The notes beneath the pieces were generated by a model. That model ran no database searches. It saw nothing but the letters and a program-made list of their open reading frames with translations, and was not told where the DNA came from. Source: Desulfosudaceae bacterium (GTDB lineage Bacteria; Desulfobacterota; Desulfobacteria; Desulfobacterales; Desulfosudaceae). From it: a DNA stretch of 64,000 nt. This document shows, one piece after another, positions 46,731-59,940 of this stretch. Position 1 is the first letter of the stretch, and each line of letters opens with the position of its first letter. The position numbers and the translations under genes are program-made. The stretch is from contig CAXXDV010000003.1 of NCBI GenBank assembly GCA_963674745.2, positions 1,344,001 through 1,408,000 on the forward strand, read 5' to 3'.

Positions 46731-47435
46731 CTATACGGTATCGACGTCCAGCAACATCGTTGACGGATTTAAATACAGGCCCGGATCGGAAGCCGCTGTT
46801 TCTTTTGTCGGCAGGGCTCTGACCCGGATTTTTTTATTCTCCGGCAACAACTCCCAGGCAACGTCAAACAGATCGGCCAGGCCGGCAAATCCGGCCGGGC
46901 GGTTCTGGTCATCCCGTTCTGCCTCTCGATGTGACGGGATAGAGAGCCATGCGCCAAAAGACAATTCCCGGCCGAGTTCCTTGATCCCGGTGATCGTGTC
47001 GGGCGCTGAGGCGTCGAGAAAAAAACCGTCTAGGATAACCATTTGCGGTGAGAAGACACTCTGCTCCACGAAGTCCATCAGTCTCTCCCTGACACCGTCA
47101 ATGGAAAAGCCTGGGGCTTTCATGGTCATAATCAAGCGGCGGGAAAGCAGTGGAGAAAGCGACAAGTTTTCCCCGGTTTTTCCGCCATGGGCCTTCACCA
47201 GATTAAAGACCTCGTTATACCACAAGGCGGTCTTCTTTACCGAATCGGACAAATTGATATGCAGCACGTTTTTCCCGGTCATCATGGCATATATAGCGGA
47301 CTGGACCAAAAAAGAGGTTTTACCGACACCGGCGCGAGCCACCACGGCTCCGAGTTTGCCGTCAGACAGGGCGTCATTAATGATACCGGCCACGGGAGCC
47401 AGTGATTCTGGTATGGTTACGGTTTGCTCCTGCAT
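46731..47435 (-). CDS. RecA/KaiC/DnaB-like P-loop protein, coupled to fusA
   Basis: ARAGVGKT Walker A, VILDG Walker B; its start directly abuts the fusA stop. Confidence 0.75.
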   Translation of the reverse strand: MQEQTVTIPESLAPVAGIINDALSDGKLGAVVARAGVGKTSFLVQSAIYAMMTGKNVLHINLSDSVKKTALWYNEVFNLVKAHGGKTGENLSLSPLLSRRLIMTMKAPGFSIDGVRERLMDFVEQSVFSPQMVILDGFFLDASAPDTITGIKELGRELSFGAWLSIPSHREAERDDQNRPAGFAGLADLFDVAWELLPENKKIRVRALPTKETAASDPGLYLNPSTMLLDVDTV

Positions 47436-49517
47436 TTATTTCTCCTGCTTTTTATTTTTCATTTTTTCAATTTCTTCGGCAATGGCCGCCGGCACCTGCT
47501 GGTAAGCCATAAACTCCATGGCGAATTGTGCCTGTCCCTGGGTAGATGACCGCAGAACGTTTGAGAAACCGAACATTTCAGCCAACGGTACCTGGGCTTC
47601 AATCGCACAGGAAACGCCTTCGTCCTGGGTACCGACAATGATACCGCGCCGCTGGTTTAACAGCTTCATTACGCCGCCCTGAAATTCCGGCGGGGTTTCA
47701 ACCGTTACTTTCATTATGGGTTCATGAATAATCGGACCGGCCTTTCTGTAAGCTTCGAGAAAGGCGCCTCGGGCCGCGGCCTCAAAAGCCATTTCCGATG
47801 AATCAACCGAATGAAAGGCGCCGTCATTGATTTCAATTTTGACATCCACCACCGGGAATTCCAGCCAGGGCCCCTTATCCATGCACTTTGAAAAGCTTTT
47901 TTCACAGGATGGAATATATTGGGTCGGTATGGCACCCCCGGTTATTTTGTTTTCAAACACGAAACCCTCTCCGGGAGCGGGTTCCATGTATCCCGCGACG
48001 CGCCCGAACTGACCTGCCCCACCCGTCTGTTTTTTATGGGTATAATTAAATTCAACCCGGCGGGTGATTGTTTCCCGGTAAGCCACCTGGGGGCTACCGA
48101 TGGAGATGGCGGCGTCATATTCACGGCGCATACGTTCCAGATAGACATCCAAATGCAGTTCGCCCATACCCTGGATAATTGTTTCGTTGGTCTCTTTGTC
48201 CACAAACGTTTGAAAGGTCGGATCTTCCCTGGTAAACCGGCCGATGGCTTTGGACATGGCGATTTCCGACTTGTTGTCCTTGGGCTTGATGGCCAGAGAG
48301 ACGACCGGATCGGGCACGAAAATAGATGTCATCGTCAGCCTTAAGCCGTCACTGGTAAACGTGTCGCCGGAAGCACAATCGATCCCGAACAAAGCGCCGA
48401 TACCGCCGGCCGATATTCGTTCGATATCTTCCATCTGGTCGGCATGCATGCGTACCAGCCGGCCGATGCGGACTTTCTTACCCGTTCTGACATTGATGAC
48501 GTTATCCCCTTTTGATAAGGTTCCCTGGTATACGCGCACATAGGTCAACTGACCGTAACGCCCGTCTTCCAGTTTAAACGCCAGGGCGACGACGGGCTGG
48601 CCCGGGTCGTGGGACAGGGTCACCTGCGACTGATCATTATCCAGGTCAATAGCCGTGTTCTGTGCGTCTTCAGGGGCCGGCATATAAGTGATAATCGCGT
48701 CCAGCAGGGGTTGTACACCCTTATTTTTGTAAGCCGATCCCACGAAAACCGGCGTCAATTCCCGGGCAAAAGCGCCCTTCCGGATGGCTTCAGCCAGCAT
48801 CGCTTCGGTAATTTCCGTTTCTTCCAGAACGGCATCGGTCAGTTCTTCCGAAAAGGCTGATGCGGCATCGATCAGCACTTCACGCTGTTCTGCCGCCCGA
48901 TCTTTAAGGTCATCCGGAATTTCAGTGGTTTTGATTGTCTCACCGTTGTCACCCTCGAAATAAACGGCTTTCATGGTTACCAGGTCCACAACGCCATTAA
49001 AATCCGCTTCCAGGCCAATGGGAATCTGTATCAGCACGGCATTGTGGCCGAGTTTATCTTTGAGTTGTCGGGTTACGCGAAAGGGATCGGCCCCGCTGCG
49101 GTCACATTTATTGACAAAGGCCAGGCAGGGAACCTTATACCGCTTCATCTGCCGGTCCACGGTAATCGACTGGGATTGGACCCCGCCCACGGCGCACAAG
49201 ACCAGGACGGCACTGTCCAGGACCCGAAGTGACCGCTCAACTTCAATAGTAAAATCCACATGGCCCGGTGTGTCGATAATATTGACGCTATACCCCTTCC
49301 ACTCACAAAAGGTCGCCGCCGAGGCGATGGTAATCCCCCGCTCTTTTTCAAGCTCCATGAAATCCATGGTCGCACCCACGCCGTCTTTTCCCTTAACGTC
49401 ATGGATAGAATGAATCCGTTGGGTATAGAACAGTATCCGTTCGGTCAGTGTGGTTTTTCCCGAATCAATATGGGCGCTGATGCCGATGTTTCTCAGTTTC
49501 TGTTTTGCAGGTTTCAT
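47436..49517 (-). CDS. fusA: Elongation factor G
   Basis: [40 protein letters not shown]. Confidence 0.97.
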
Positions 49518-49932: not shown

Positions 49933-51300
49933 ATGCAGCCTCTTCCTCCACATATGCATGTCTACATCATACCCTTCCAGGATAAGTTTGTCGTCTACAG
50001 ACCTTTAAAAAGATTAGCCTTTATTGCTAATTCGGCCATGGTTAATCTTATTGCGAAGATACAGGAGAAGTCACATTTTAAGGGCCTGCCGACGCACAGT
50101 GAAGCCATGGCCTTTCTCGATGCCGTCGGTTTTTTTGAACCCGACCCCCGGCCTACCCAACCGCCGCCAGTTCAAGAACCGTATTTACCGACAGTCGCGG
50201 TCGTGTTTTTAACCACTGACTGTAATTGTAAATGTGTTTATTGTTATGCTTCAGCAGGCGGTGTGCCGGCCACGGAAACGCTTCCCGTCAGGCTGGGATA
50301 TCGCACCATTGATGTTGTCTGTGAAAATGCCCTGCTGACCGGAAAAAACAAATTCACGTTGAGCTTTCATGGCGGCGGCGAACCGACGATGGCGTCGAAA
50401 AAAATGAAACAGCTGATAAATTACGCCAGAAAAAAAGAAGTACCCTGTCATGCCAATCTTACAACCAACGGTTGCTGGTCTGCGGCTGACAGGGAGTGGA
50501 TTCTGAACAATTTTGACGATGTCAGCCTCTCTTTTGACGGTTTGCGTGAAATTCAGGACCGCCAGCGTCCGCTTGCAAGCGGTAGAGGAACATATGACCT
50601 GGTTATGGCGAGCATTACGGCCATGGACCAGCGGCAGTTGTCTTATGGTATCCGAATGACGGTAACAGAGGACTCTGTCGATCAATTGCCGGAAAACATG
50701 AAATTCCTTTGCAGCAGCACGGATTGCCGGGTTTTCCAGGTGGAGCCGGCGTCCAATCATGGACGGGCAATGCAGGGCCATAATGCCCTGACCCAATACG
50801 ATCGATTTGCCCGGGCCTTTCTTAAAGCATATGATATTGCCGTGGCTGCGGGCAGGCACATGTATTATTCAGGCGCAAGGCCCTGGGTGATTACCCCACG
50901 TTTTTGTCAGGCCCCGGAAAATGCTTTGATTGTGGGTACGGACGGGTTTCTCACGGCATGTTATGAAGTGTGCAGTAGAGACCACGAACTGGCGGGGCTG
51001 TTTTGCTTTGGTGATATCTCCGAAAACGGGATAATGTCCGTGCACGAAAAGACCCGGCAGGCGCTTTTTGAAAAAATTGAACAGCGAAAAAAACAGTGCC
51101 GGGACTGCTTTTGTTTCTGGCATTGTGCCGGAGACTGCCCGTCCAAGACAATGACGGCGGATGGCAGGGGGCACCTTCGGTTTGACCGACGGTGTGATTT
51201 GAACCGCCATATTACCCGGGAACTGATTATACGCAACATTACAAACGGTAACGGTATCTGGCAGGGGGCATCAGAAGAACAGATGCTTGTCGCCTGTTAG
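49933..51300 (+). CDS. Radical SAM/SPASM peptide/protein maturase with N-terminal RRE-like region
   Basis: CNCKCVYC, FHGGGEP, TTNG, SFDG; SPASM FCQA...DG.LTAC...CRDCFCFWHCAGDCP...RC. Confidence 0.92.
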   Translation: MQPLPPHMHVYIIPFQDKFVVYRPLKRLAFIANSAMVNLIAKIQEKSHFKGLPTHSEAMAFLDAVGFFEPDPRPTQPPPVQEPYLPTVAVVFLTTDCNCKCVYCYASAGGVPATETLPVRLGYRTIDVVCENALLTGKNKFTLSFHGGGEPTMASKKMKQLINYARKKEVPCHANLTTNGCWSAADREWILNNFDDVSLSFDGLREIQDRQRPLASGRGTYDLVMASITAMDQRQLSYGIRMTVTEDSVDQLPENMKFLCSSTDCRVFQVEPASNHGRAMQGHNALTQYDRFARAFLKAYDIAVAAGRHMYYSGARPWVITPRFCQAPENALIVGTDGFLTACYEVCSRDHELAGLFCFGDISENGIMSVHEKTRQALFEKIEQRKKQCRDCFCFWHCAGDCPSKTMTADGRGHLRFDRRCDLNRHITRELIIRNITNGNGIWQGASEEQMLVAC

Positions 51301-51327
51301 GGCAGTTAACACCAAAAGGAATCGACG

Positions 51328-51780
51328 ATGGAAAAGAGAAGGAATCCTGGCGCTGCGACAACATCCCGCCGGAACTTTTTCCGTCGTTTTTTTACTGAAA
51401 CGATAAGCCTTATTGAGGAAGCCAGGGGAACCCCCCAGCTCAACCTGAATGATATCGCAGCGCTCCCGGATGAGATTTTCGGTAGTATCATTCCGGTTTT
51501 CAGTGAACATACCCGGTATCGGATTGAAGGTGATCGGCTACTCATCGTCGATGAAAAGAGCGCTATTTTCAGAAAAGCCTATCAATTTACGCCTCGAGAG
51601 CTGTATGTTTTGAATCAATTTGACGGACATAATACATTAAATTCAATTGTTTATGTAATTATAAACCAGTTTGACCAAGATGCCGAAGCAGCGTTTCAGC
51701 AGGTAAAAAATCTGTTCTGCACCATGGCCGGATACGCGGTATGCCATCCGCTGCATGAAACACCGGAGCAGCAAAAATGA
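51328..51780 (+). CDS. PqqD/RRE-like protein with an N-terminal twin-arginine motif
   Basis: C-terminal VLNQFDGHNTLNSIV..I...F.....AFQQVKNLF..M matches the PqqD pattern; N-terminal SRRNFF has no hydrophobic h-region. Confidence 0.65.
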   Translation: MEKRRNPGAATTSRRNFFRRFFTETISLIEEARGTPQLNLNDIAALPDEIFGSIIPVFSEHTRYRIEGDRLLIVDEKSAIFRKAYQFTPRELYVLNQFDGHNTLNSIVYVIINQFDQDAEAAFQQVKNLFCTMAGYAVCHPLHETPEQQK

Positions 51781-53162
51781 ACCGGGCAGATATTGCCGAT
51801 ATTTACGCCATTTCCTTACCAGAAGAGAAGTTTCTGCTATATTCCCCGTTAAGGGGTTTTTCCGCGCTCGTAAACCGGAAAGCCCTTGATGAATCCGCCC
51901 GGTTTGTAACGGGAAAACCATGCCGAAACAGGGGGGCGTCACCGCTTGACGCTATTTTCAATGCGCTTTCAACGCCTGCTTTACCCCCTCCATTTGAACC
52001 GGATAAGCTGCTGGCTCCTTTTTTTCTGGGTATTATTCCCACGCGGGCCTGTAACATGTCCTGCCGTTATTGCGATTTCGGGGACCAATCGCCGGGTTCG
52101 CAGTCCATGGATTTACGGACTGCTGTAGCTGCTGTGGACTGGATGGCGGACCATGTTTATCGGACAGGCCGGGATAAACTGGAAATCCACTTTTTCGGCG
52201 GAGAGCCGTTTGTCGCCCCAGATGTCGTGGACGCCGCCGTTTACCGGGCGCGGGCTGTTGCCGGGGAAAAAGGGATACCCCTTCATCTGGAAGTGTCCAC
52301 CAACGGTCTATTTGATGAGAACAGGGCCGTTTTTGTGGGGGATTACTTTAATTCAGCTGTTATTTCCCTGGATGGATTCCGGGAAACACATGACCGTCAC
52401 CGCCCCCTAGACGGGAGCAGAGGTAGTTTTGATGGTGTCGTAGAGTCAATTCGGCGGCTTTCGATGACGCCGGCAGAGGTTTGTCTGCGGTGTTGTATAT
52501 CGCATATAAACGTGGACAGGATGGAAGCGATTGCCCGGTGGTTCTGTGAAGAATTAAAACCATCTGTCGTAAACTTTGAAATCGTAAGTTCAAATTCAAA
52601 ATCAGATGCGGCGGGATTGTTTCCGCCCGACCCGTATCGTTTTGCCGGTAATTGCGTTCGGGCCTGTCGTCTTGTCCGACAATTCGGGATTCAAGCGGTT
52701 TACGCGTCGGCATCTATTGATACCGTGCGTCGAAGTTTTTGTCCCATGGGAAAGGATACCTTGATCGTTTCTCCCGATGGACGGATCAGCAGTTGTTATC
52801 TGCCGGACAGGGACTGGAAGAAAAAGGGACTGGATCTTGATGTGGGACGTCTGAGAACGGATGGTTCAATGGATATTGACATGGCTGCAATCCAGCGTCT
52901 GCGCCGGATAACCGCCGATAAGCCCGGCTGTGAAAAATGCTTTTGCAAATGGACTTGCGCCGGAGGCTGTCATGTCAGGCAATACGATCAGGCAGCTGTT
53001 TCTACAAAAAATGATTTTTGTGTTCAGACGCGCCTTATTACCGCCTGTTCTCTGCTGGACAACCTTGGATTCCGCGATCTGGCCGATTCGCTTCTGGCGG
53101 ATATGGACGCGATGGAAACTCTGGCGTTGAATCCATCGGATTATTTGGTACAATTCACATGA
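51777..53162 (+). CDS. Radical SAM/SPASM peptide/protein maturase with N-terminal RRE-like region
   Basis: CNMSCRYC, FFGGEP, STNG, ISLDG; SPASM FCPMG...PDG.ISSC...CEKCFCKWTCAGGCH...FC; ATGA overlap with the upstream gene. Confidence 0.92.
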   Translation: MNRADIADIYAISLPEEKFLLYSPLRGFSALVNRKALDESARFVTGKPCRNRGASPLDAIFNALSTPALPPPFEPDKLLAPFFLGIIPTRACNMSCRYCDFGDQSPGSQSMDLRTAVAAVDWMADHVYRTGRDKLEIHFFGGEPFVAPDVVDAAVYRARAVAGEKGIPLHLEVSTNGLFDENRAVFVGDYFNSAVISLDGFRETHDRHRPLDGSRGSFDGVVESIRRLSMTPAEVCLRCCISHINVDRMEAIARWFCEELKPSVVNFEIVSSNSKSDAAGLFPPDPYRFAGNCVRACRLVRQFGIQAVYASASIDTVRRSFCPMGKDTLIVSPDGRISSCYLPDRDWKKKGLDLDVGRLRTDGSMDIDMAAIQRLRRITADKPGCEKCFCKWTCAGGCHVRQYDQAAVSTKNDFCVQTRLITACSLLDNLGFRDLADSLLADMDAMETLALNPSDYLVQFT

Positions 53163-53196
53163 TGTATGGAAATTAAACCATAACGAAAGAGGCCAT

Positions 53197-54822
53197 ATGG
53201 ATGACTCTAGAAAAGATGATCGCTTGAAGCAAGTGCCCGAGAATCCGGATGAAAAACCTGAGGTGTACGCGGTCTCAATGAAAAAAAAGAGGGTTTCATT
53301 AAGCCGTCGTGCTTTTTTGGGCAGTATCGGTACCGGCGCGCTGCTGACCGCCTGTGCTGAACTAAATCCTCAAAAAAACGGATGTGTCGACAAAACAGCC
53401 GGCCGGCCGGGGGGTGTTTCACAATTACCGTCGGAACCGGTAAAAGAAGTGTATGAGTGGTGCGAAAATTTTAATACCCATTCAAATTCCGTCAATGCCC
53501 TGGCTGTCAGCCCGAATGGCCGGATGCTGGTGTCGGGAAGCGCCGACACAACGATCAAATTATGGTCTCTCCCCGGGGGAAAGCTCCTGAAAATCTTAAA
53601 GGGGCATTCAAATGTTGTAAATACGGTAGCCGTCAGTCCGGACGGCAAGCTGCTGGCTTCCGGAAGCGGCGGTAAGACTGTCAGGCTGTGGTCTCTTAAA
53701 AATGGCCGGGGGCTGCTTTCTTTGAAAGGGCATTCAGCGTTTGTCAAGTCTGTTGCCTTCAGCCCGGATGGCCGGCTGCTGGCTTCCGGAAGCGGAGACA
53801 AAACCATTAAGTTGTGGTCTCTGCCGGAGGGGAAACTGCTGAAAACCCTGACGGGACATTCGAGTTATGTGTATGCGGTTGCCTTCAGCCCGGACGGTAA
53901 ATTTCTAATATCCGGAAGCGCTGACAAAACCATCCGGTTGTGGTCTTTGCCGGACGCAATGCTGTCACAAACCCTGACAGGGCATTCCGACTATGTCAAC
54001 TCACTGGTTGTCGGTTCGGACAGCCGGCTCCTGATATCGGGAAGCTGTGACAGAACGATTAAACTGTGGTCTTTGCCGGACGGGGGGCTGTTGCAAACCC
54101 TGGCAGGTCATTCCGGCTGGATCAATACTTTAGCGATCAGCCTGTGCGGACATCTGCTGGCGTCGGGAAGTGCTGATAAAACGGTAAGAATATGGTCCCT
54201 GCCGGAGGGTAAACCGCTTCTGGTGATGATGGGCCAGGATTTGCCGATAAAATCCGTGGTAATCAACCCGGAAGGGAATTTGTTAATATCGGCCGGTAGT
54301 GACAAAACCATTACCGTATGGACGCTTCCGGATGGATCCCCCAGTTGGTGCTTTTCCGATCCTGCCTTAACCGCGCCGCAGGAGATGAAAACCTTTCGTC
54401 AGATGGGATTTTGCACCCGGATCCTGCCCTGTGGCGCACAGATACCGCCGGGGGCTGTTTGCACTTGTAATTGTGTGGCAGCGGCCTCTATCCACAAGGG
54501 GCCTGAAACGATCTGTATTTGTGATACCATCGCCGTCCCGGCCTTCAAAACGCTGCCGGGAAATACGGTGTGTGTCTGCAACACAATTTTAGTCGGCACG
54601 GGTTGTATCCCCAAGAATCATGAACGGCACATGTCAGGGAAGTCCTGTACCTGCAATACTATTTGTACCTGTGATACGGTGTCGAGGGCCGGTCTTCCTT
54701 GTTCCCGTTATGCTGTAGGCGGCCACACAAAACAGACGACCGGAACGACTTGTACCTGCGATACCATCTGCACCTGCGATACGGTTTCAACAGGAGGCGG
54801 GCATTACTGGTATCCCACTTAA
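53197..54822 (+). CDS. Tat-exported lipoprotein with 7 WD40 repeats and a Cys-rich repeat tail (putative modification substrate)
   Basis: SRRAFL Tat motif (aa 36-41), LTA-C lipobox (Cys53), seven 42-aa WD40 repeats, 7x C-x-C-[DN]-[TC]-[IV], C-terminus GGGHYWYPT. Confidence 0.88.
   Translation: MDDSRKDDRLKQVPENPDEKPEVYAVSMKKKRVSLSRRAFLGSIGTGALLTACAELNPQKNGCVDKTAGRPGGVSQLPSEPVKEVYEWCENFNTHSNSVNALAVSPNGRMLVSGSADTTIKLWSLPGGKLLKILKGHSNVVNTVAVSPDGKLLASGSGGKTVRLWSLKNGRGLLSLKGHSAFVKSVAFSPDGRLLASGSGDKTIKLWSLPEGKLLKTLTGHSSYVYAVAFSPDGKFLISGSADKTIRLWSLPDAMLSQTLTGHSDYVNSLVVGSDSRLLISGSCDRTIKLWSLPDGGLLQTLAGHSGWINTLAISLCGHLLASGSADKTVRIWSLPEGKPLLVMMGQDLPIKSVVINPEGNLLISAGSDKTITVWTLPDGSPSWCFSDPALTAPQEMKTFRQMGFCTRILPCGAQIPPGAVCTCNCVAAASIHKGPETICICDTIAVPAFKTLPGNTVCVCNTILVGTGCIPKNHERHMSGKSCTCNTICTCDTVSRAGLPCSRYAVGGHTKQTTGTTCTCDTICTCDTVSTGGGHYWYPT
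53473..54327 (+). repeat. Seven tandem 126-bp WD40 coding repeats
   Basis: Repeated (G)HS..V..VA.SPDG.LL.SGS.DKT(I/V).LWSL with a 42-aa period. Confidence 0.9.
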
Positions 54823-54834
54823 GCCGGACGGCAG

Positions 54835-57672
54835 ATGAATATTTTAACTCCTGCGAATAAAAACGACATAACCGACGATTTCACGGCAGCGGACACTTTT
54901 TCTGTCGGCAATTTTATGCTTAAGGGGAAGGTCCATCCGAAACTGCCTCTGTTTGAACTGCGTTCGGGCGGTCAAAGCGTATTGTATGCGCCCGGAAAAG
55001 TTGCCGTTGTAGATTATCCGAATGCCGAAGCGATCTGCCGGGCATGGTCCGGAGACGGTGTCCTGTCTCCGGGCAGCATTTCCGGTCAGACGGCCCGATG
55101 GCTTGAAACGCATGCGGAAAATGCCCTGAAAAAATGGAAGGCTGTTACCGGCATGCCTTTCCAGCCCGAATGCCTGACCATTTACCCGGGTATTCAGTGC
55201 AACCTGAAATGTGGTTATTGTTACGCGCGGAACCGTGACGTTGATGAAACAGCGGGAAGCAGGTCAGGCCGTCCGGTTATGGCTGATTCGGTTGTGGCTT
55301 CCGCTGCCGCGATTGTAGCGAAAAACTGCGCCGACAAAGGACTTCCGTTTCATCTGGTTCTGCACGGCGGTGGAGAGCCCTCATACTACTTTGATCAGGT
55401 GCGCCGTTATACGGCGATAACCCGCCAGGCTGCCCGGCAGCTCGGGCTGGACTGGTTCGGGTATATCGCCACCAATGGGGTAATGCCTGAAAAAAATGCC
55501 CGGTGGCTGGCTGAAAATTTTACGCGGATCGGACTGTCGTGCGACGGCCCTCCAGATATTCAGGACAGGCAGCGGCCGCTTAAAACTGGCGGCAGAACCT
55601 CGCCACAGGTAAAACAGACCGCGCGTATTTTAACTGAACATGGCGCGGATATGGTTGTCCGCGCCACCCTGACACCCTGGTCTTTTTCTCGTCAGACTGA
55701 AATTGTCACCTATTTTTATGAGCATTTAAATCCATCCGCCATACGTTTTGAACCGGCTTTTCGACTTCGGGATAATGGGCATCCGGGATTCACCGCAGAC
55801 GATGCGTCAATTTTTGTCGAGCATTTTCTGGCTGCCAGGAAGACAGCAGAATCCATGGGATGCCATCTTTCCTTATCCGGTATCCGGCCCGAAGAGATCC
55901 ACGGCCCTTTTTGCGATGTCCTGCGGAATGTCCTGCGTCTGGGACCGGACGGTTCGGCTACGGCCTGTTTTCTGATATCAGATGAAACGGTACCTGTCAG
56001 TTCGCCTTTTTTGATTGGCCGGGCGGACCCGGACACGGGTGATTTTATTTTAGACACCAAAAAGATAGAGGCATTCCGGCGTTCCGTCGCCGTCATACCT
56101 GCCGAATGTGAACAATGCATCAATATCTGTCATTGCGCCCGGGGATGTCCGGACCGGTGTCCGGTTTTAACCGGGTCGCCCGTTGATCCGGAGAATAAAA
56201 ATAATAATAATTTTCTGTGCCGGTTGTATCAAAAACTGGCGCCGGCCCTCATTATGGACGCAGCGGACAGGTTGATAAACAGAGAACAAAAAAAGGCGGT
56301 GACGATACTACCCGATATCGGCATCTCCGATGAAGCCGGCCTTAACCTGAATGATCTGCCGGCTGCCGTAAACAGGGAAGAGATCAGAAAACAGTATGAC
56401 GCGGTGGGCGGTACCTATGATATTACAGCCGGCCGCTTGCCGGAGCCTGCCTGGCGGAAAAAGGGGTTTACCTTCAATGGCCCTGATGCCTGGCATTATC
56501 TGCGTCGGGTTTTACCGGATACGGATCACGCCCGACCGGTGTCTATTTATTTCCATGTCCCGTTTTGTGAACACCGGTGTGCCTTTTGTGACTGCTATGC
56601 CTTTCCCTTCGGGAAAAAAAGGTCCGTAAAAGAAGAGGCCTTTTGCCGGGCGCTTGTAGCTGAAATGCGTTTTTGGTCGGATATTTACCCGATCAGCCGA
56701 CGCCGGGTTACGACCGTCCATTTCGGCGGAGGGACCCCGGGGTGTTTGAATGCTCCTGTGTTTGATCGAATTCTGACGGAATGCCGCGATCTTTTTAAAG
56801 TCCATGAGCAGACGGAATGGGCGCTGGAAACAACCGTTTCTCACATCAGGCAGGAAGATTTGAACCGGTTGGGAAAATTGGGCTTTTCCCGGCTGCATGT
56901 TGGGGTTCAGACCTTAAATGAGGATTTAAGGCAATCCATTGGGAGAAGGACTTCAGCCAAGGATGCTGTCTTCAGGCTGAAAAAGGCCATGGGGGCAGGT
57001 TTTGTTGTTTCCGTAGATATTTTATATGGCCTCCCCGGACAGCGCTTATCGGATGTGCTGAATACCCTGTCGATCCTGATTGACATGGAGATTCACGGTC
57101 TGTCGCTTTACCGTTTCAATGTATCAAAACGGAATCGATGGTATATTAAGCGTTGCCGGGAGTTTAACCCGGATCCGCGTCGTGATTACTTGATGTTTCA
57201 GGCCGCGGAGCAAATGCTGACCAAAGCCGGTTATCGGAAAAACCATTTTGCGCATTTTGCAAAACAAGCGGATCGCAACCTGTATTTCACCTGTCCGCTG
57301 AGGGGGGAAGACCTGCTGGCCATGGGGCCGACGGCAGACGGTTTTTTCGGTAATTATCGATACCGTAACGCGGAATATGCAAGGTATATGAACCAGTTGC
57401 AAAACAAATCAGGCATGCCGGTGCTGCAAGGCTGTCTTGAGGAATCAGACCTTGAGGTCAGGGCGCGTCCGGCGATCCTCGACATTATGGGCAGCCATAT
57501 CCGGAGAAGCGTTCATGAACATCTGGGTATCGACAGTCTGATCAAGAAATGGGAAGACTGTCTGCTGATCGAAAATTTATCCGGCGGAAATGATTTTGCG
57601 TTAACACCGAACGGCTCCTGGTTTGTTAATCAAATGATTGCTGATGTTTTACATGATCTTGAAAGCAGGTGA
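54835..57672 (+). CDS. Double radical SAM protein: radical SAM/SPASM fused to a HemN-like (class C) radical SAM domain
   Basis: CNLKCGYC (aa 122), LHGGGEP, SPASM CEQCINICHCARGCP; second domain IYFHVPFCEHRCAFC (Cys578), VHFGGGTP, RLHVGVQT, VDILYGLPGQ. Confidence 0.9.
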   Translation: MNILTPANKNDITDDFTAADTFSVGNFMLKGKVHPKLPLFELRSGGQSVLYAPGKVAVVDYPNAEAICRAWSGDGVLSPGSISGQTARWLETHAENALKKWKAVTGMPFQPECLTIYPGIQCNLKCGYCYARNRDVDETAGSRSGRPVMADSVVASAAAIVAKNCADKGLPFHLVLHGGGEPSYYFDQVRRYTAITRQAARQLGLDWFGYIATNGVMPEKNARWLAENFTRIGLSCDGPPDIQDRQRPLKTGGRTSPQVKQTARILTEHGADMVVRATLTPWSFSRQTEIVTYFYEHLNPSAIRFEPAFRLRDNGHPGFTADDASIFVEHFLAARKTAESMGCHLSLSGIRPEEIHGPFCDVLRNVLRLGPDGSATACFLISDETVPVSSPFLIGRADPDTGDFILDTKKIEAFRRSVAVIPAECEQCINICHCARGCPDRCPVLTGSPVDPENKNNNNFLCRLYQKLAPALIMDAADRLINREQKKAVTILPDIGISDEAGLNLNDLPAAVNREEIRKQYDAVGGTYDITAGRLPEPAWRKKGFTFNGPDAWHYLRRVLPDTDHARPVSIYFHVPFCEHRCAFCDCYAFPFGKKRSVKEEAFCRALVAEMRFWSDIYPISRRRVTTVHFGGGTPGCLNAPVFDRILTECRDLFKVHEQTEWALETTVSHIRQEDLNRLGKLGFSRLHVGVQTLNEDLRQSIGRRTSAKDAVFRLKKAMGAGFVVSVDILYGLPGQRLSDVLNTLSILIDMEIHGLSLYRFNVSKRNRWYIKRCREFNPDPRRDYLMFQAAEQMLTKAGYRKNHFAHFAKQADRNLYFTCPLRGEDLLAMGPTADGFFGNYRYRNAEYARYMNQLQNKSGMPVLQGCLEESDLEVRARPAILDIMGSHIRRSVHEHLGIDSLIKKWEDCLLIENLSGGNDFALTPNGSWFVNQMIADVLHDLESR

Positions 57673-57946
57673 AGATGGTTCACTTTGATCCTGATGTCGT
57701 CTGGTCTGTTGACTGCCGCGGTTTGTCGCTGGTTCACCGTAAAACAGGTGACCGCGCTTGCCTGGTTTATCCCCAAGCCGCTTTATGGGATCTGTTGAGC
57801 AGAGAGGTGGAAATGACGAGGATCATCCGGATCATGACGGCTCTGACGGCGTTGAGGACCCGGCTGTCCGGCTATGGTGCCGCCGGACCGTCCAGGGCTG
57901 GATTGACGCGGGCTGGATGCTCGAAGACGGGGAAACCGCATCATGA
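57669..57946 (+). pseudogene. PqqD/RRE-like gene split by a 1-base frameshift near 57846-57850 (pseudogene or assembly error)
   Basis: First frame gives ..YPQAALWDLLSR..IIRIMTALT; the -1 frame continues GVEDPAVRLWCRRTVQGWIDAGWM..TGA, overlapping the next ATG (ATGA 57943-57946); joined length ~92 aa. Confidence 0.65.
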
Positions 57947-59940
57947 CGAATCTTTCCCTTACCTCTGAATGTAACCAGAATTGTTCATACTGCTTTGCCG
58001 GGAATATAACGGAAGTCAGCCGTTTTCCCCGCCGGGAGTATGATGGGTTCCTCGCGTTTTTGAGGCGGTCAGGGATCAAGCAGGTCCGGTTGCTGGGCGG
58101 TGAACCCACGCTTCATCCGGACTTTATTTTTTTTGTAGAAGAGGCTTTCCGTCAGGGCTTTCATGTGCTGGTATTTTCAAACGGCATGATGCCTGAAAGC
58201 GCCGTAAAATGTCTTGAAATCCTGCCCCCGGACAAGCTACTGGTTCTGGTAAATACCACCCCTTCCCGGCGTTGGAACATGAACCTACGTGGTCGCCGGA
58301 TCGAGATATTGAAACGTTTGAATCAGAGGGTAATGATCGGTTTAACCATTCACACAACGAACCCTGATATTGATTCCATCTGTTCGTATATTGAAATATT
58401 GAATTTACGCCCCGCCATCCGCCTGGGTCTGGCCCATCCCTGCCCGGACAGCACCAATCAATGGTTGCCTCCCAAGCATTATTGTCTGGTCGGACAAATC
58501 ATAGCCGATTTTATCATTCGGCACCCGGATCTGTCGATCGAGTTTGATTGCGGCTTCGTGCCCTGCATGTTCCCGGACTGGTTTTTTTCACAGTCTGTTT
58601 TCAAACCGGAGGACATCGGGCGCCGCTGCGGGCCGATACCGGACATCTTACCCGATGGCTCAGTAGTGCACTGTTTTCCGTTACGTGCCATATCGAAACT
58701 GACACTGGATCAACTGGCCTGTGCCCGGGCGGCAGGAAAAGAATTGTCGCGAATGGTTGCACCGTATCAGCATACGGGTATTTTCCCGGAATGCGGCTGC
58801 TGTGAATATCGGACGGCGGATCAGTGCTCCGGCGGTTGTATTGCGGCAGCCGGCCGGCGCTTGAGAAGTTCGTCTCAATGCTTTTCTCTGTCAATTCCGC
58901 TCAGCACATCCCTTGCGTCGGATTTTACCGGCAATGAGCCGTCCCCCGGTAACGGGACGCTGGAAGATGTGAACGATGCCAGGGTGGACAAAGATTTCAT
59001 CATTCCGTATATCGATCAGCCACCGCGTTTCTGGGAGGAAATTTATAGCGCCTTTGGCCGGTTTATCAAAAAGGTGTATTGTCCCCTGCCCGGCAGTAAA
59101 ATCGGTTCCGGGCGTCCGCCTCAACCCGATGACCATTTACATCAATTTTTATGTTCCGGTTATTTTGAGACGGATATCCTTATCAACTCGCCTTTTGTTA
59201 AAGAACCGCTGGACGATTTTACAAGCCGTGTCATCAGGGAATTGAGGCTGTTTTCGGAGAAATACCCTTTATCGGGCGTGACGATTGCCAATCGTAAGGT
59301 CGGCAGACGGATCCGGGAGGTATTTCCTGACCTGACCCTGACGGCTTCGGTGTTGATGGATGTTTACGGGCCTGATCAGATAAAACGGATGGGGGATACT
59401 TTTGACTGCCTGGTTCCGTCCAGCAGGATTATGCGTAATATCAATGCCCTGATGCGGATCAGGCAGGCTTTTGCCGGGAAGATACGGTTGATCGCCAATG
59501 AAGCGTGCCTTCCGGGCTGCCCCTACCGTGATCAGCATTTTTACGAGATGAATTCCGACCGTTCGTACCCTGAATCGCTCTGTACCGACCTTCTCGAGGA
59601 AAAACCATGGCTGCGCTTAACCGGTGCCTGGGTTCTTCCGCAGCACCTGTCTTTTTTCGATACCATCTATGATGAACTCAAACTGGCGGGCCGCGTTACC
59701 TTAAAAGATCCGGCAAAGTATATGAAGGTGCTGAATGCTTATATTACCGGGACGCCGCTGACCCCGGATGAAATCGGCGGCGGGCCGGCGTCTGTCCTAG
59801 ACCCTGTTTATATTGATTCTGATTTTTATTTTTCCACGTTAAATTGTGATAAACAATGCCATCAATGCGATATCTGCAGCACATATTATGAAATGCAGAC
59901 CAATCCGGTAGAAAATGAAACAGAAAAAGTGCCTGTATGA
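57943..59940 (+). CDS. Radical SAM/SPASM domain fused to a peptidase U32-family domain
   Basis: CNQNCSYC, LLGGEPTLHP, FSNG, CGP..DILPDG.V.HCFP, CGCC...CSGGC; C-terminal IGSGR, ASV, ANEACLPGCP...H, LKLAGR, CDKQCHQCDIC. Confidence 0.85.
   Translation: MTNLSLTSECNQNCSYCFAGNITEVSRFPRREYDGFLAFLRRSGIKQVRLLGGEPTLHPDFIFFVEEAFRQGFHVLVFSNGMMPESAVKCLEILPPDKLLVLVNTTPSRRWNMNLRGRRIEILKRLNQRVMIGLTIHTTNPDIDSICSYIEILNLRPAIRLGLAHPCPDSTNQWLPPKHYCLVGQIIADFIIRHPDLSIEFDCGFVPCMFPDWFFSQSVFKPEDIGRRCGPIPDILPDGSVVHCFPLRAISKLTLDQLACARAAGKELSRMVAPYQHTGIFPECGCCEYRTADQCSGGCIAAAGRRLRSSSQCFSLSIPLSTSLASDFTGNEPSPGNGTLEDVNDARVDKDFIIPYIDQPPRFWEEIYSAFGRFIKKVYCPLPGSKIGSGRPPQPDDHLHQFLCSGYFETDILINSPFVKEPLDDFTSRVIRELRLFSEKYPLSGVTIANRKVGRRIREVFPDLTLTASVLMDVYGPDQIKRMGDTFDCLVPSSRIMRNINALMRIRQAFAGKIRLIANEACLPGCPYRDQHFYEMNSDRSYPESLCTDLLEEKPWLRLTGAWVLPQHLSFFDTIYDELKLAGRVTLKDPAKYMKVLNAYITGTPLTPDEIGGGPASVLDPVYIDSDFYFSTLNCDKQCHQCDICSTYYEMQTNPVENETEKVPV

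Follow-up and report, generated by a model that had tools for sequence, protein, structure and literature searches.

A conserved aromatic ending of Cys-repeat proteins co-occurs with an accessory set of radical SAM enzymes

The window analyzed here is a stretch of 64,000 nucleotides from the genome of a Desulfosudaceae bacterium (contig CAXXDV010000003.1, positions 1,344,001 to 1,408,000 of the forward strand). It encodes a 541-residue protein (53197..54822, + strand), hereafter the substrate protein, that carries a long tail of cysteine repeats and terminates, after three glycines, in the short aromatic peptide HYWYPT. The gene for this protein is surrounded by genes for radical S-adenosylmethionine (SAM) enzymes. 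We report that the terminal tag is conserved, is strictly confined to the C-terminus, and co-occurs with particular enzymes of the cluster, down to the level of a single tag residue.

The substrate protein and its gene cluster

The open reading frame (ORF) of the substrate protein comprises a leader-like N-terminus, a twin-arginine translocation (Tat)/lipoprotein signal, a WD40 propeller (Pfam match, 1.5e-82), the Cys-repeat tail, and the terminal tag. The N-terminus, which reads MDDSRKDDRLKQVPENPDEKPEVYAV, includes the leader-like motif PEVYAV (residues 21-26) followed by the twin-arginine sequence SRRAFLG (residues 36-42; 53257..53322 for the two together, + strand), and the hydrophobic stretch of the signal is closed by a lipobox-like LTAC (residues 50-53 in the translation; 53344..53355, + strand), which is resembled by an [A/G/S]-C after the hydrophobic stretch in many homologs. 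All the sequence features of a Tat lipoprotein, namely, an S-R-R-x-F-L-type motif, a hydrophobic stretch, and a lipobox Cys (SRRAFLG...GALLTAC), are present, and the Pfam TAT_signal model matches two of the 11 homologs scanned; the substrate is probably a Tat-exported, predicted lipid-anchored protein.

The CxC-repeat tail region makes up the final 147 residues of the protein. Translation and alignment reveal there the motifs PCG..CTCNCV, CICDTI, CVCNTI, and, twice, CTC[N/D]TICTCDTV (54379..54789, + strand), and neither CxxCH nor any other known heme motif was found in the translated tail. Neither Pfam nor NCBIfam holds a curated family that matches the Cys-repeat tail or the tag. In an AlphaFold2 model built with 26 homologs, the propeller (roughly residues 85-390) has values above 90 in the predicted form of the local distance difference test (pLDDT), residues 1-78 are largely below 50, and so are nearly all of residues 395-541, with values of about 25-30 over residues 490-541; given these low values, the tail looks like a free, flexible peptide. 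The glycine spacer and the tag (54793..54819, + strand) are encoded, reading in frame from the ORF start at 53197, by gga (G, 54793), ggc (G, 54796), ggg (G, 54799), cat (H, 54802), tac (Y, 54805), tgg (W, 54808), tat (Y, 54811), ccc (P, 54814), and act (T, 54817), preceded by aca (T, 54790) and followed by the stop codon taa (54820-54822). The codons from 54793 to 54822 confirm exactly the ending that the initial annotation had singled out, GGG-HYWYPT with four consecutive aromatic residues, His being counted as one.

The substrate gene lies within a tight cluster in which all genes are on the same strand (49933-59940, +). Enzyme A (49933..51300, + strand) is a radical SAM/SPASM protein according to its Pfam Radical_SAM and SPASM matches; its best NCBIfam match is PapB (110.3 bits, cut-off 340), and SCIFF gives 101 bits (cut-off 425). 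Enzyme B (51777..53162, + strand), likewise of the radical SAM/SPASM type, scores 117.3 bits with PapB (cut-off 340) and 79 bits with QhpD (cut-off 453). Being below the PapB, SCIFF, and QhpD cut-offs, A and B do not qualify as members of the ranthipeptide/SCIFF/QhpD-type families. Enzyme C (54835..56400, + strand), another radical SAM/SPASM enzyme, forms the N-terminal half of a 945-residue fusion protein (54835-57672) and yields low scores with YhhB (49.7 bits, cut-off 445), AmcB (43.9, cut-off 425), GrrM (42.7, cut-off 310), FxsB (41.9, cut-off 370), and XyeB (25.5, cut-off 450). The initial annotation had envisaged a cyclophane synthase; at 25-50 bits versus cut-offs of 310-450, enzyme C belongs to none of these families, and A and B are below the cut-offs as well. 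When the YhhB and PapB scores are set side by side (49.7 and 61.4 bits for C, 54.8 and 110.3 for A, 56.9 and 117.3 for B), C appears to be relatively nearer to the cyclophane and aromatic cross-linker families than A or B.

The remainder of the C fusion is a HemN-like domain of the class C radical SAM type (56401..57672, + strand), with ChuW/HutW (1.3e-54, 185.7 bits, cut-off 400), HemW (143.5 bits, cut-off 205.4), and HemN (134.9 bits, cut-off 325) as the best curated matches. C578, C582, and C585 (CxxxCxxC) and G631-G633/P635 (GGG(T)P), which we take to be the cluster motif and the HemN-type SAM motif, respectively, are invariant in 13 fusions. Enzyme D (57943..58932, + strand; Pfam Radical_SAM, 8.3e-12) is the N-terminal half of a 665-residue protein (57943-59940) and is fused to a 335-residue TIM-barrel domain (58933..59940, + strand) that appears U32-like from structure matching. 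Residues 301-665 of the D protein match nothing in Pfam at E<=10. The AlphaFold2 model of the U32-like domain (pLDDT 84), in which seven Cys are invariant, has its best Protein Data Bank match in the U32 protein Mk0906 (5d88; E 2.6e-7, 14% identity, target-normalized TM-score 0.64), about 500-fold better than the next matches, generic TIM barrels. Thus, the U32 domain named in the initial annotation is probably recovered, at the level of the fold only and not by Pfam, and it turns out to be optional among tagged systems.

Two small PqqD-like proteins complete the cluster. [quoted passage not shown] The second, orf99 (99 residues; 57669..57968, + strand), is invariably encoded just upstream of D, and Pfam PqqD matches six of the 17 members of its family (best, 5.5e-5), the window copy not being among the matches at E<=0.1. 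Profile comparison of the two families gives only a weak match (probability 14.7%). An Arg-Arg pair in the 150-residue protein (window 51367-51372, residues 14-15) belongs to an RRxFF motif that is invariant in all 27 aligned members and resembles the SRRxFL Tat motif of the substrate, but is not followed by a hydrophobic stretch; possibly, this pair imitates the Tat motif or competes for it.

Directly upstream of the cluster, on the - strand (46731-49517), lie a gene for a 693-residue protein, apparently an EF-G-like GTPase judging from a reading of the translation rather than a family search, and a gene for an AAA_25-like protein of 234 residues, which was not found adjoining any related locus examined.

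The tag is a signature of the family

A homolog search with the tail alone recovered 13 proteins. The ending is HYW[Y/R]P[N/S/C] (an extra Val being present in one case) or YTYWYPN in 12 of them, and ..GRYY in the remaining one. A profile search of 1.84 billion representatives yielded 548 proteins at E<=0.001, 91 of these at E<=1e-10, the 548 being clusters of the tail family at 50% identity; among the 156 homologs examined after this search, 114 end in xY[W/Y/F]xP plus one or two residues. Pooling the homologs with ORFs from 151 loci (cited below by their L numbers) gave 169 distinct tagged tails, with the consensus [H/S/T]-Y-W-[Y/H/R]-P-[N/T/S/C/D]. Counted from the C-terminus, Tyr at -5 is invariant (169 tails), Trp at -4 and Pro at -2 occupy 166 tails each (the others having Y in two and T in one at -4, and S in three at -2), and the remaining positions are more variable: -6 is H in 127 tails, S in 22, T in 18, and Y and L in one each; -3 is Y in 104, H in 32, R in 30, K in two, and F in one; -1 is N in 146, T in 12, S in four, C in four, and D in three. 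Arg or Lys at -3 is restricted to tails with His at -6 (32 of 127 vs none of the 40 Ser/Thr-type tails).

The tag is the exact C-terminus in all 169 tails, one further tail has a single residue after it, and no internal copies were found in any tail of the pooled set. By contrast with this fixed end, the glycine linker that the initial annotation had described as setting off the tag, although present here as GGG and frequent in the family, is not fixed: the last Cys precedes the tag by 3 to 51 residues, a stretch with an average Gly content of about 27%. The conservation of the ending is far more than chance would produce, and tagged proteins come from about ten phyla, going by record titles and one source name. 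The search for a terminal HYWYP among homologs that had been suggested as a check, with lack of conservation as the unfavorable outcome, has thus identified a family signature. A relative at L134 (1-870) ends in ..YYTTTYTYPN after many PTYY repeats and adjoins a C-type enzyme and a PqqD-like protein; this ending appears to be a degenerate or alternative form of the tag.

Tagged and untagged relatives differ in their enzymes

A scan of species-representative genomes with a 5-row alignment detected 127 relatives, with 73 loci kept, and a metagenome scan detected 241, with 78 loci kept; extension of ORFs through the matches produced closed ORFs, 62 of which bear the tag and 86 of which do not. 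The untagged proteins have in common the motif PCGxPIPPGAVCTCNCV and end, for example, in CTCVPIK, CTCNLVYY, or CMAVRCR, or run into other domains. We assigned each radical SAM ORF in the loci to the best-scoring of the four paralogs in the window and counted only loci with at least 5 kb on both flanks, 23 of them tagged and 36 untagged. Enzyme A is present in both classes (19/23 tagged, 34/36 untagged). The other components are concentrated in the tagged class: B was found in 20/23 tagged vs 1/36 untagged loci, C in 20/23 vs 0/36, D in 18/23 vs 1/36, the HemN-like domain in 15/23 vs 0/36, the U32-like domain in 12/23 vs 0/36, and PqqD-like proteins in 18/23 vs 0/36. A is the only radical SAM type that adjoins untagged tails (34 of the 36 loci); the single exception to the split is L063, the sole untagged locus with B and D, and there these genes are broken across frames. 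By these counts, A belongs with the shared Cys motifs, and the tag is accompanied by B, C, D, and the PqqD-like proteins.

Two of the tagged loci without enzymes, L030 and L042, are extra substrate copies in metagenome-assembled genomes (MAGs) whose main clusters are L013 and L008, and for L005, the one well-covered tagged locus that lacks B, this enzyme was found elsewhere in the genome (376 bits). Enzyme D is not obligatory, as four of the five further tagged genomes searched, these four being of His type, yielded no copy of it. The L146 tail consists of nothing but CTCNCV, a Gly-rich stretch, and HYWHPN, and in L055, the untagged-type ending CTCVPV is joined directly to HYWYPS; on these sequences, the tag can be almost the sole feature that separates the two classes. 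Two substrate genes are present in some genomes, as in L075/L076 on one 24.8-kb metagenome contig or in the orphan copies L030 and L042 that lie far from the enzymes, which suggests that one enzyme set serves several substrates.

The first tag residue tracks the HemN-like domain

The link between the tag and the enzymes extends to the residue at position -6. Among the systems with His at this position, an ortholog of the HemN-like domain is encoded in the locus in 23 cases (133-387 bits against the window domain), a count that includes the window and excludes L081 and L094, duplicates of L035 and L034. Six more His-type loci are cut by contig ends, and in all six genomes, the HemN-like domain is found on another contig (242-369 bits), which makes 29 of 29 answerable His-type systems; left out of these 29 are two orphan copies, L146 (where a 70-bit start is cut by the contig end), and 14 short contigs. 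Conversely, an intact HemN-like copy was found in none of the 10 Ser/Thr-type systems (seven genomes and three metagenome contigs). In the seven genomes, the best HemN-like matches reach 87-104 bits at 25-32% identity, which we read as the level of an ordinary HemN/HemW gene, except that L071 has no match and that the genome of L015 (Ser-type, SYWYPN) has a match of 173 bits and about 45% identity. The latter covers only the C-terminal half of the HemN-like domain, contains a TGA, and looks like the remnant of a lost gene. This fragment (L153 6465-7058, G002:C57) lies on a contig other than that of L015, between PP2C-like and membrane-protein genes, and leaves an ORF of 84 residues. On the three contigs, L075/76, L079, and L148, the C genes are complete and unfused, and HemN-like sequence is lacking. 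With tblastn at E<=1, no decayed HemN-like or U32-like remnants were found in 12 Ser/Thr-type and variant loci. The genome of L064, where the protein ends in ..SYWY, has no HemN-like copy either (50 bits at best).

A quick maximum-likelihood tree of B with 30 rows, from which the duplicates L081, L094, and L075 were dropped, requires four changes between His and Ser/Thr even when only well-supported branches are counted, and the presence of the HemN-like domain changes with His in four of four independent pairs. The U32-like domain, too, is absent from all Ser/Thr-type systems examined. Among His-type systems, however, its presence is optional: of five genomes whose loci lack the domain, those of L012, L019, L003, and L034 yielded no copy, and that of L020 encodes it elsewhere. 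A different arrangement was observed in L003 (10649-13549; a Competibacteraceae MAG), where it is B, at its N-terminus, and not C, at its C-terminus, that carries a HemN-like domain, here a more divergent one (152 bits); the genome yielded no copy of D.

A leader-like motif at the N-terminus and interchangeable bodies

At the other end of the protein, the motif P-[E/Q]-[V/I]-[Y/F]-A-[V/I] occurs 6-16 residues ahead of the twin arginines in 55 of the 62 tagged ORFs; most of the seven without it have a 5' end cut by the contig, and some proteins start right at the motif (MKPEIYAIQRGRSGWKLSRR). The untagged relatives display a related motif, ..DG..E.PEI[VY]P..RRGFL, so the family, as its sequences suggest, already has a leader-like element at the N-terminus.

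The body of the protein is interchangeable. In 11 of 11 short tagged homologs scanned, WD40 is replaced by SH3_3 (eight: L012, L036, L054, L092, L120-L122, L141) or an Ig-like domain, N_BRCA1_IG (three: L020, L110, L112), the signal, the Cys tail, and the tag being kept. These body-swapped homologs are mostly of Chloroflexota type, with a Pro/Thr-rich linker before the SH3_3 or Ig-like domain. We considered and rejected the possibility that the tail is a ligand of its own WD40 propeller: the tail is undocked in the model (pLDDT <50), and the tag is not a partner of the propeller, given that SH3_3 and Ig-like bodies bear this tail and tag as well.

A proposed second modification module and its alternatives

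How is the co-occurrence of the tag with the enzymes to be interpreted? We lean, with modest confidence, toward the tag being a second modification module at the free C-terminus, matured by several radical SAM enzymes, with an accessory set that comes with the tag and a HemN-like domain for which the His is either the target or a requirement. Modification of the tag as such, the enzymes responsible, and the chemistry are what we infer from the distribution of genes and residues. On this evidence, a modification site that depends on the free C-terminus is the most likely role of the tag, and the HemN-like domain probably acts on, or requires, its His. The initial annotation had proposed a second core, chemically unlike the Cys repeats, and in this respect it agrees with the co-occurrence of B, C, and D and with the tracking of His by the HemN-like domain; the cyclophane chemistry that was attached to this proposal is hypothetical.

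In such a scenario, several radical SAM enzymes would mature the substrate protein in the cytoplasm, before Tat export. Enzyme A, common to the untagged relatives, would handle the Cys motifs that both classes share; the accessory set that comes with the tag would consist of B, C, D, and the two PqqD-like proteins. Enzyme C would most likely cross-link the invariant Tyr/Trp, given that it is constant in tagged clusters, mostly has the HemN-like domain joined to it or following it, and is relatively nearer to the cyclophane families than A or B. The HemN-like domain, in turn, would most likely act on the His, by C-methylation or a methylene bridge, considering the known chemistry of this enzyme class. 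Complex prediction for the C-HemN fusion with the last 45 residues of the substrate gave no answer (score 0.00), which counts neither for nor against binding.

Several considerations weigh against this interpretation. The whole of it is built on co-occurrence, and most of the genomes examined are incomplete MAGs. The count of 29 vs 0 for the HemN-like domain is inflated by shared ancestry, and a sign test on the four transitions gives p=0.125, which is not significant, as four pairs cannot reach 0.05. The His could couple to the U32-like domain, or to the pair, rather than to the HemN-like domain alone, inasmuch as Ser/Thr-type systems lack the U32-like domain as well. All the radical SAM enzymes of the cluster score far below every curated family cut-off, and the best matches of the HemN-like domain, ChuW, HemW, and HemN, all handle tetrapyrroles, a peptide methylase being, on these matches, only one option. 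Furthermore, the extra CxC repeats of most tagged tails could be the target of B, C, and D alike, in which case the tag would have another role, and a strict C-terminal position is typical of docking tags, too.

The last two points lead to the alternative of a docking tag, that is, a follower-type recognition sequence in which the hexapeptide stays unmodified and draws the accessory enzymes, or the PqqD-like proteins that partner them, to the tail, where the enzymes would then modify the Cys repeats. We consider this unlikely. A fixed distance to the free carboxylate with a variable spacer is the usual look of C-terminal recognition motifs, and the tag has exactly this arrangement; most tagged tails have more CxC repeats than untagged ones; and the cluster encodes probable discrete RREs, the two small PqqD-like proteins, which equal the tag in class specificity (18 of 23 tagged vs none of 36 untagged loci). 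The leader-like motif, however, is already conserved at the N-terminus in both classes, which makes a second, C-terminal recognition sequence less necessary, although still possible. Moreover, some tagged tails, such as that of L146, have no extra CxC repeat on which extra enzymes could work, and the joint loss of an enzyme domain and a tag residue, in four of four cases, fits a substrate residue at least equally well.

Another alternative, which we regard as quite improbable, is that the tag is a functional end-piece of the mature protein, an extracellular ligand, by way of its His, for a metal, a heme or other tetrapyrrole, or a partner protein, the HemN-like domain being a HemW/ChuW-like tetrapyrrole handler. 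Tat export is typical of proteins that gain their cofactors before export and so would fit a protein of this kind, the link between His and the HemN-like domain is equally compatible with an axial ligand, and the best curated matches of this domain (ChuW/HutW, HemW, and HemN) are tetrapyrrole enzymes or chaperones. Yet, all these matches are under the cut-offs (400, 205, and 325 bits), and HemN-like methylases of peptides or natural products would give the same best matches because we saw no curated model for them. Besides, the tail has no CxxCH or other known heme motif, and Ser/Thr-type proteins keep the rest of the tag, C, and D without the His. Finally, a sorting or processing signal for C-terminal cleavage, anchoring, or secretion, of the sortase or exosortase kind, to which the terminal position of the tag would be suited, is highly improbable and was rejected, as the protein ends at the motif with no hydrophobic helix or basic tail after it, family annotation of the cluster identified no protease, sortase-like gene, or transporter, and export is already explained by the N-terminal Tat/lipobox signal.

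Relationship to known systems

His, Tyr, and Trp are known ring donors in cyclophane-type cross-links. The closest parallels to a modified aromatic ending are the triceptides and other aromatic cross-linkers (XyeB, GrrM/OscB, FxsB, YhhB, AmcB, HaaB/HtkB; DarE/DynA), which likewise combine a short aromatic-rich motif near the C-terminus of the precursor, a radical SAM/SPASM enzyme, and PqqD-type helpers. The triceptide core motif, Aromatic-X-X, can be read in HYWYPT as H-Y-W, Y-W-Y, W-Y-P, and Y-P-T, a loose criterion that any aromatic-rich stretch passes. The differences are substantial: the precursors in those systems are short peptides and not a 541-residue exported protein, and the system described here has four radical SAM enzymes along with HemN-like and U32-like domains for a single protein. 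For His, HtkB is described as making a link from His-C2 to Lys-C-beta (PMC11499958).

Among full-size substrates, the γ-subunit of quinohemoprotein amine dehydrogenase, QhpC, which is modified by QhpD and then by a Trp hydroxylase, is a Cys-rich polypeptide cross-linked by a cytoplasmic radical SAM/SPASM enzyme, with a Trp converted into a protein-derived cofactor and a periplasmic product (in part, PMC7876137). Unlike that system, the tag here is strictly terminal, the QhpD model scores only 51-79 bits on the window enzymes (cut-off 453), and the cluster annotation, in which no search was aimed at either, turned up no flavoprotein hydroxylase or dehydrogenase partner. In Methanococcus voltae, CrpC, a radical SAM/SPASM enzyme, is described as installing ranthionine cross-links on CrpA, a full-size Cys-repeat protein whose N-terminus is leader-like and whose Cys region is C-terminal (PMC13692751). 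This system differs in being archaeal, with one enzyme and no aromatic terminal tag, and WD40, twin-arginine, and HemN find no mention in the text of the paper (PMC13692751).

The HemN-like domain shares the CxxxCxxC and GGG(T)P positions, present in all 13 fusions, with the class C radical SAM methylases (NosN, TbtI, C10P, ChuW), which, according to two sources, attach one-carbon units to aromatic or olefinic substrates at sp2 carbons (PMC6050322, PMC12871812). The window domain differs from these in scoring below every cut-off and in being fused to a radical SAM/SPASM peptide maturase, and protein His is not among the targets named in the abstracts of these sources (PMC6050322, PMC12871812). 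The domain fused to D resembles the U32 iron-sulfur proteins UbiU/UbiV, with a U32 protein (5d88) as its best solved match and conserved Cys, and U32 proteins are described as hydroxylating aromatic rings without O2 (10.1101/587956, PMC10990095). Here, unlike in UbiU/UbiV, the domain is not recognized by the Pfam U32 model, has 14% identity to 5d88, and is optional. In the library searched, neither the motif strings nor the combinations of enzymes and architecture that were tried led to a paper on this system.

Implications

New here are the statistics of the tag, the division of the family according to whether one enzyme or several are encoded, and the coupling of His with the HemN-like domain. 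A bolder scenario, to which we assign a decidedly low probability, is that the terminal His-Tyr-Trp is converted, without oxygen, into a new protein-derived cofactor or a cross-linked redox center: a radical SAM enzyme would cross-link the rings, the HemN-like domain would place a one-carbon unit at the His, the U32-like domain would hydroxylate a ring, and the product would be exported by the Tat system on a lipid-anchored carrier with a WD40, SH3, or Ig body. Whatever its function, the tag is a simple search handle for the system. If the tag is indeed modified, it would represent a new radical SAM substrate motif and, probably, the first instance of action by a HemN-like enzyme on a residue in a protein, one that is linked to a single His. 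The natural variants, which have His or Ser/Thr at the first tag position and possess or lack the HemN-like and U32-like domains, are in effect an experiment already set up, one that shows with which residue and which enzyme a chemist would best begin.

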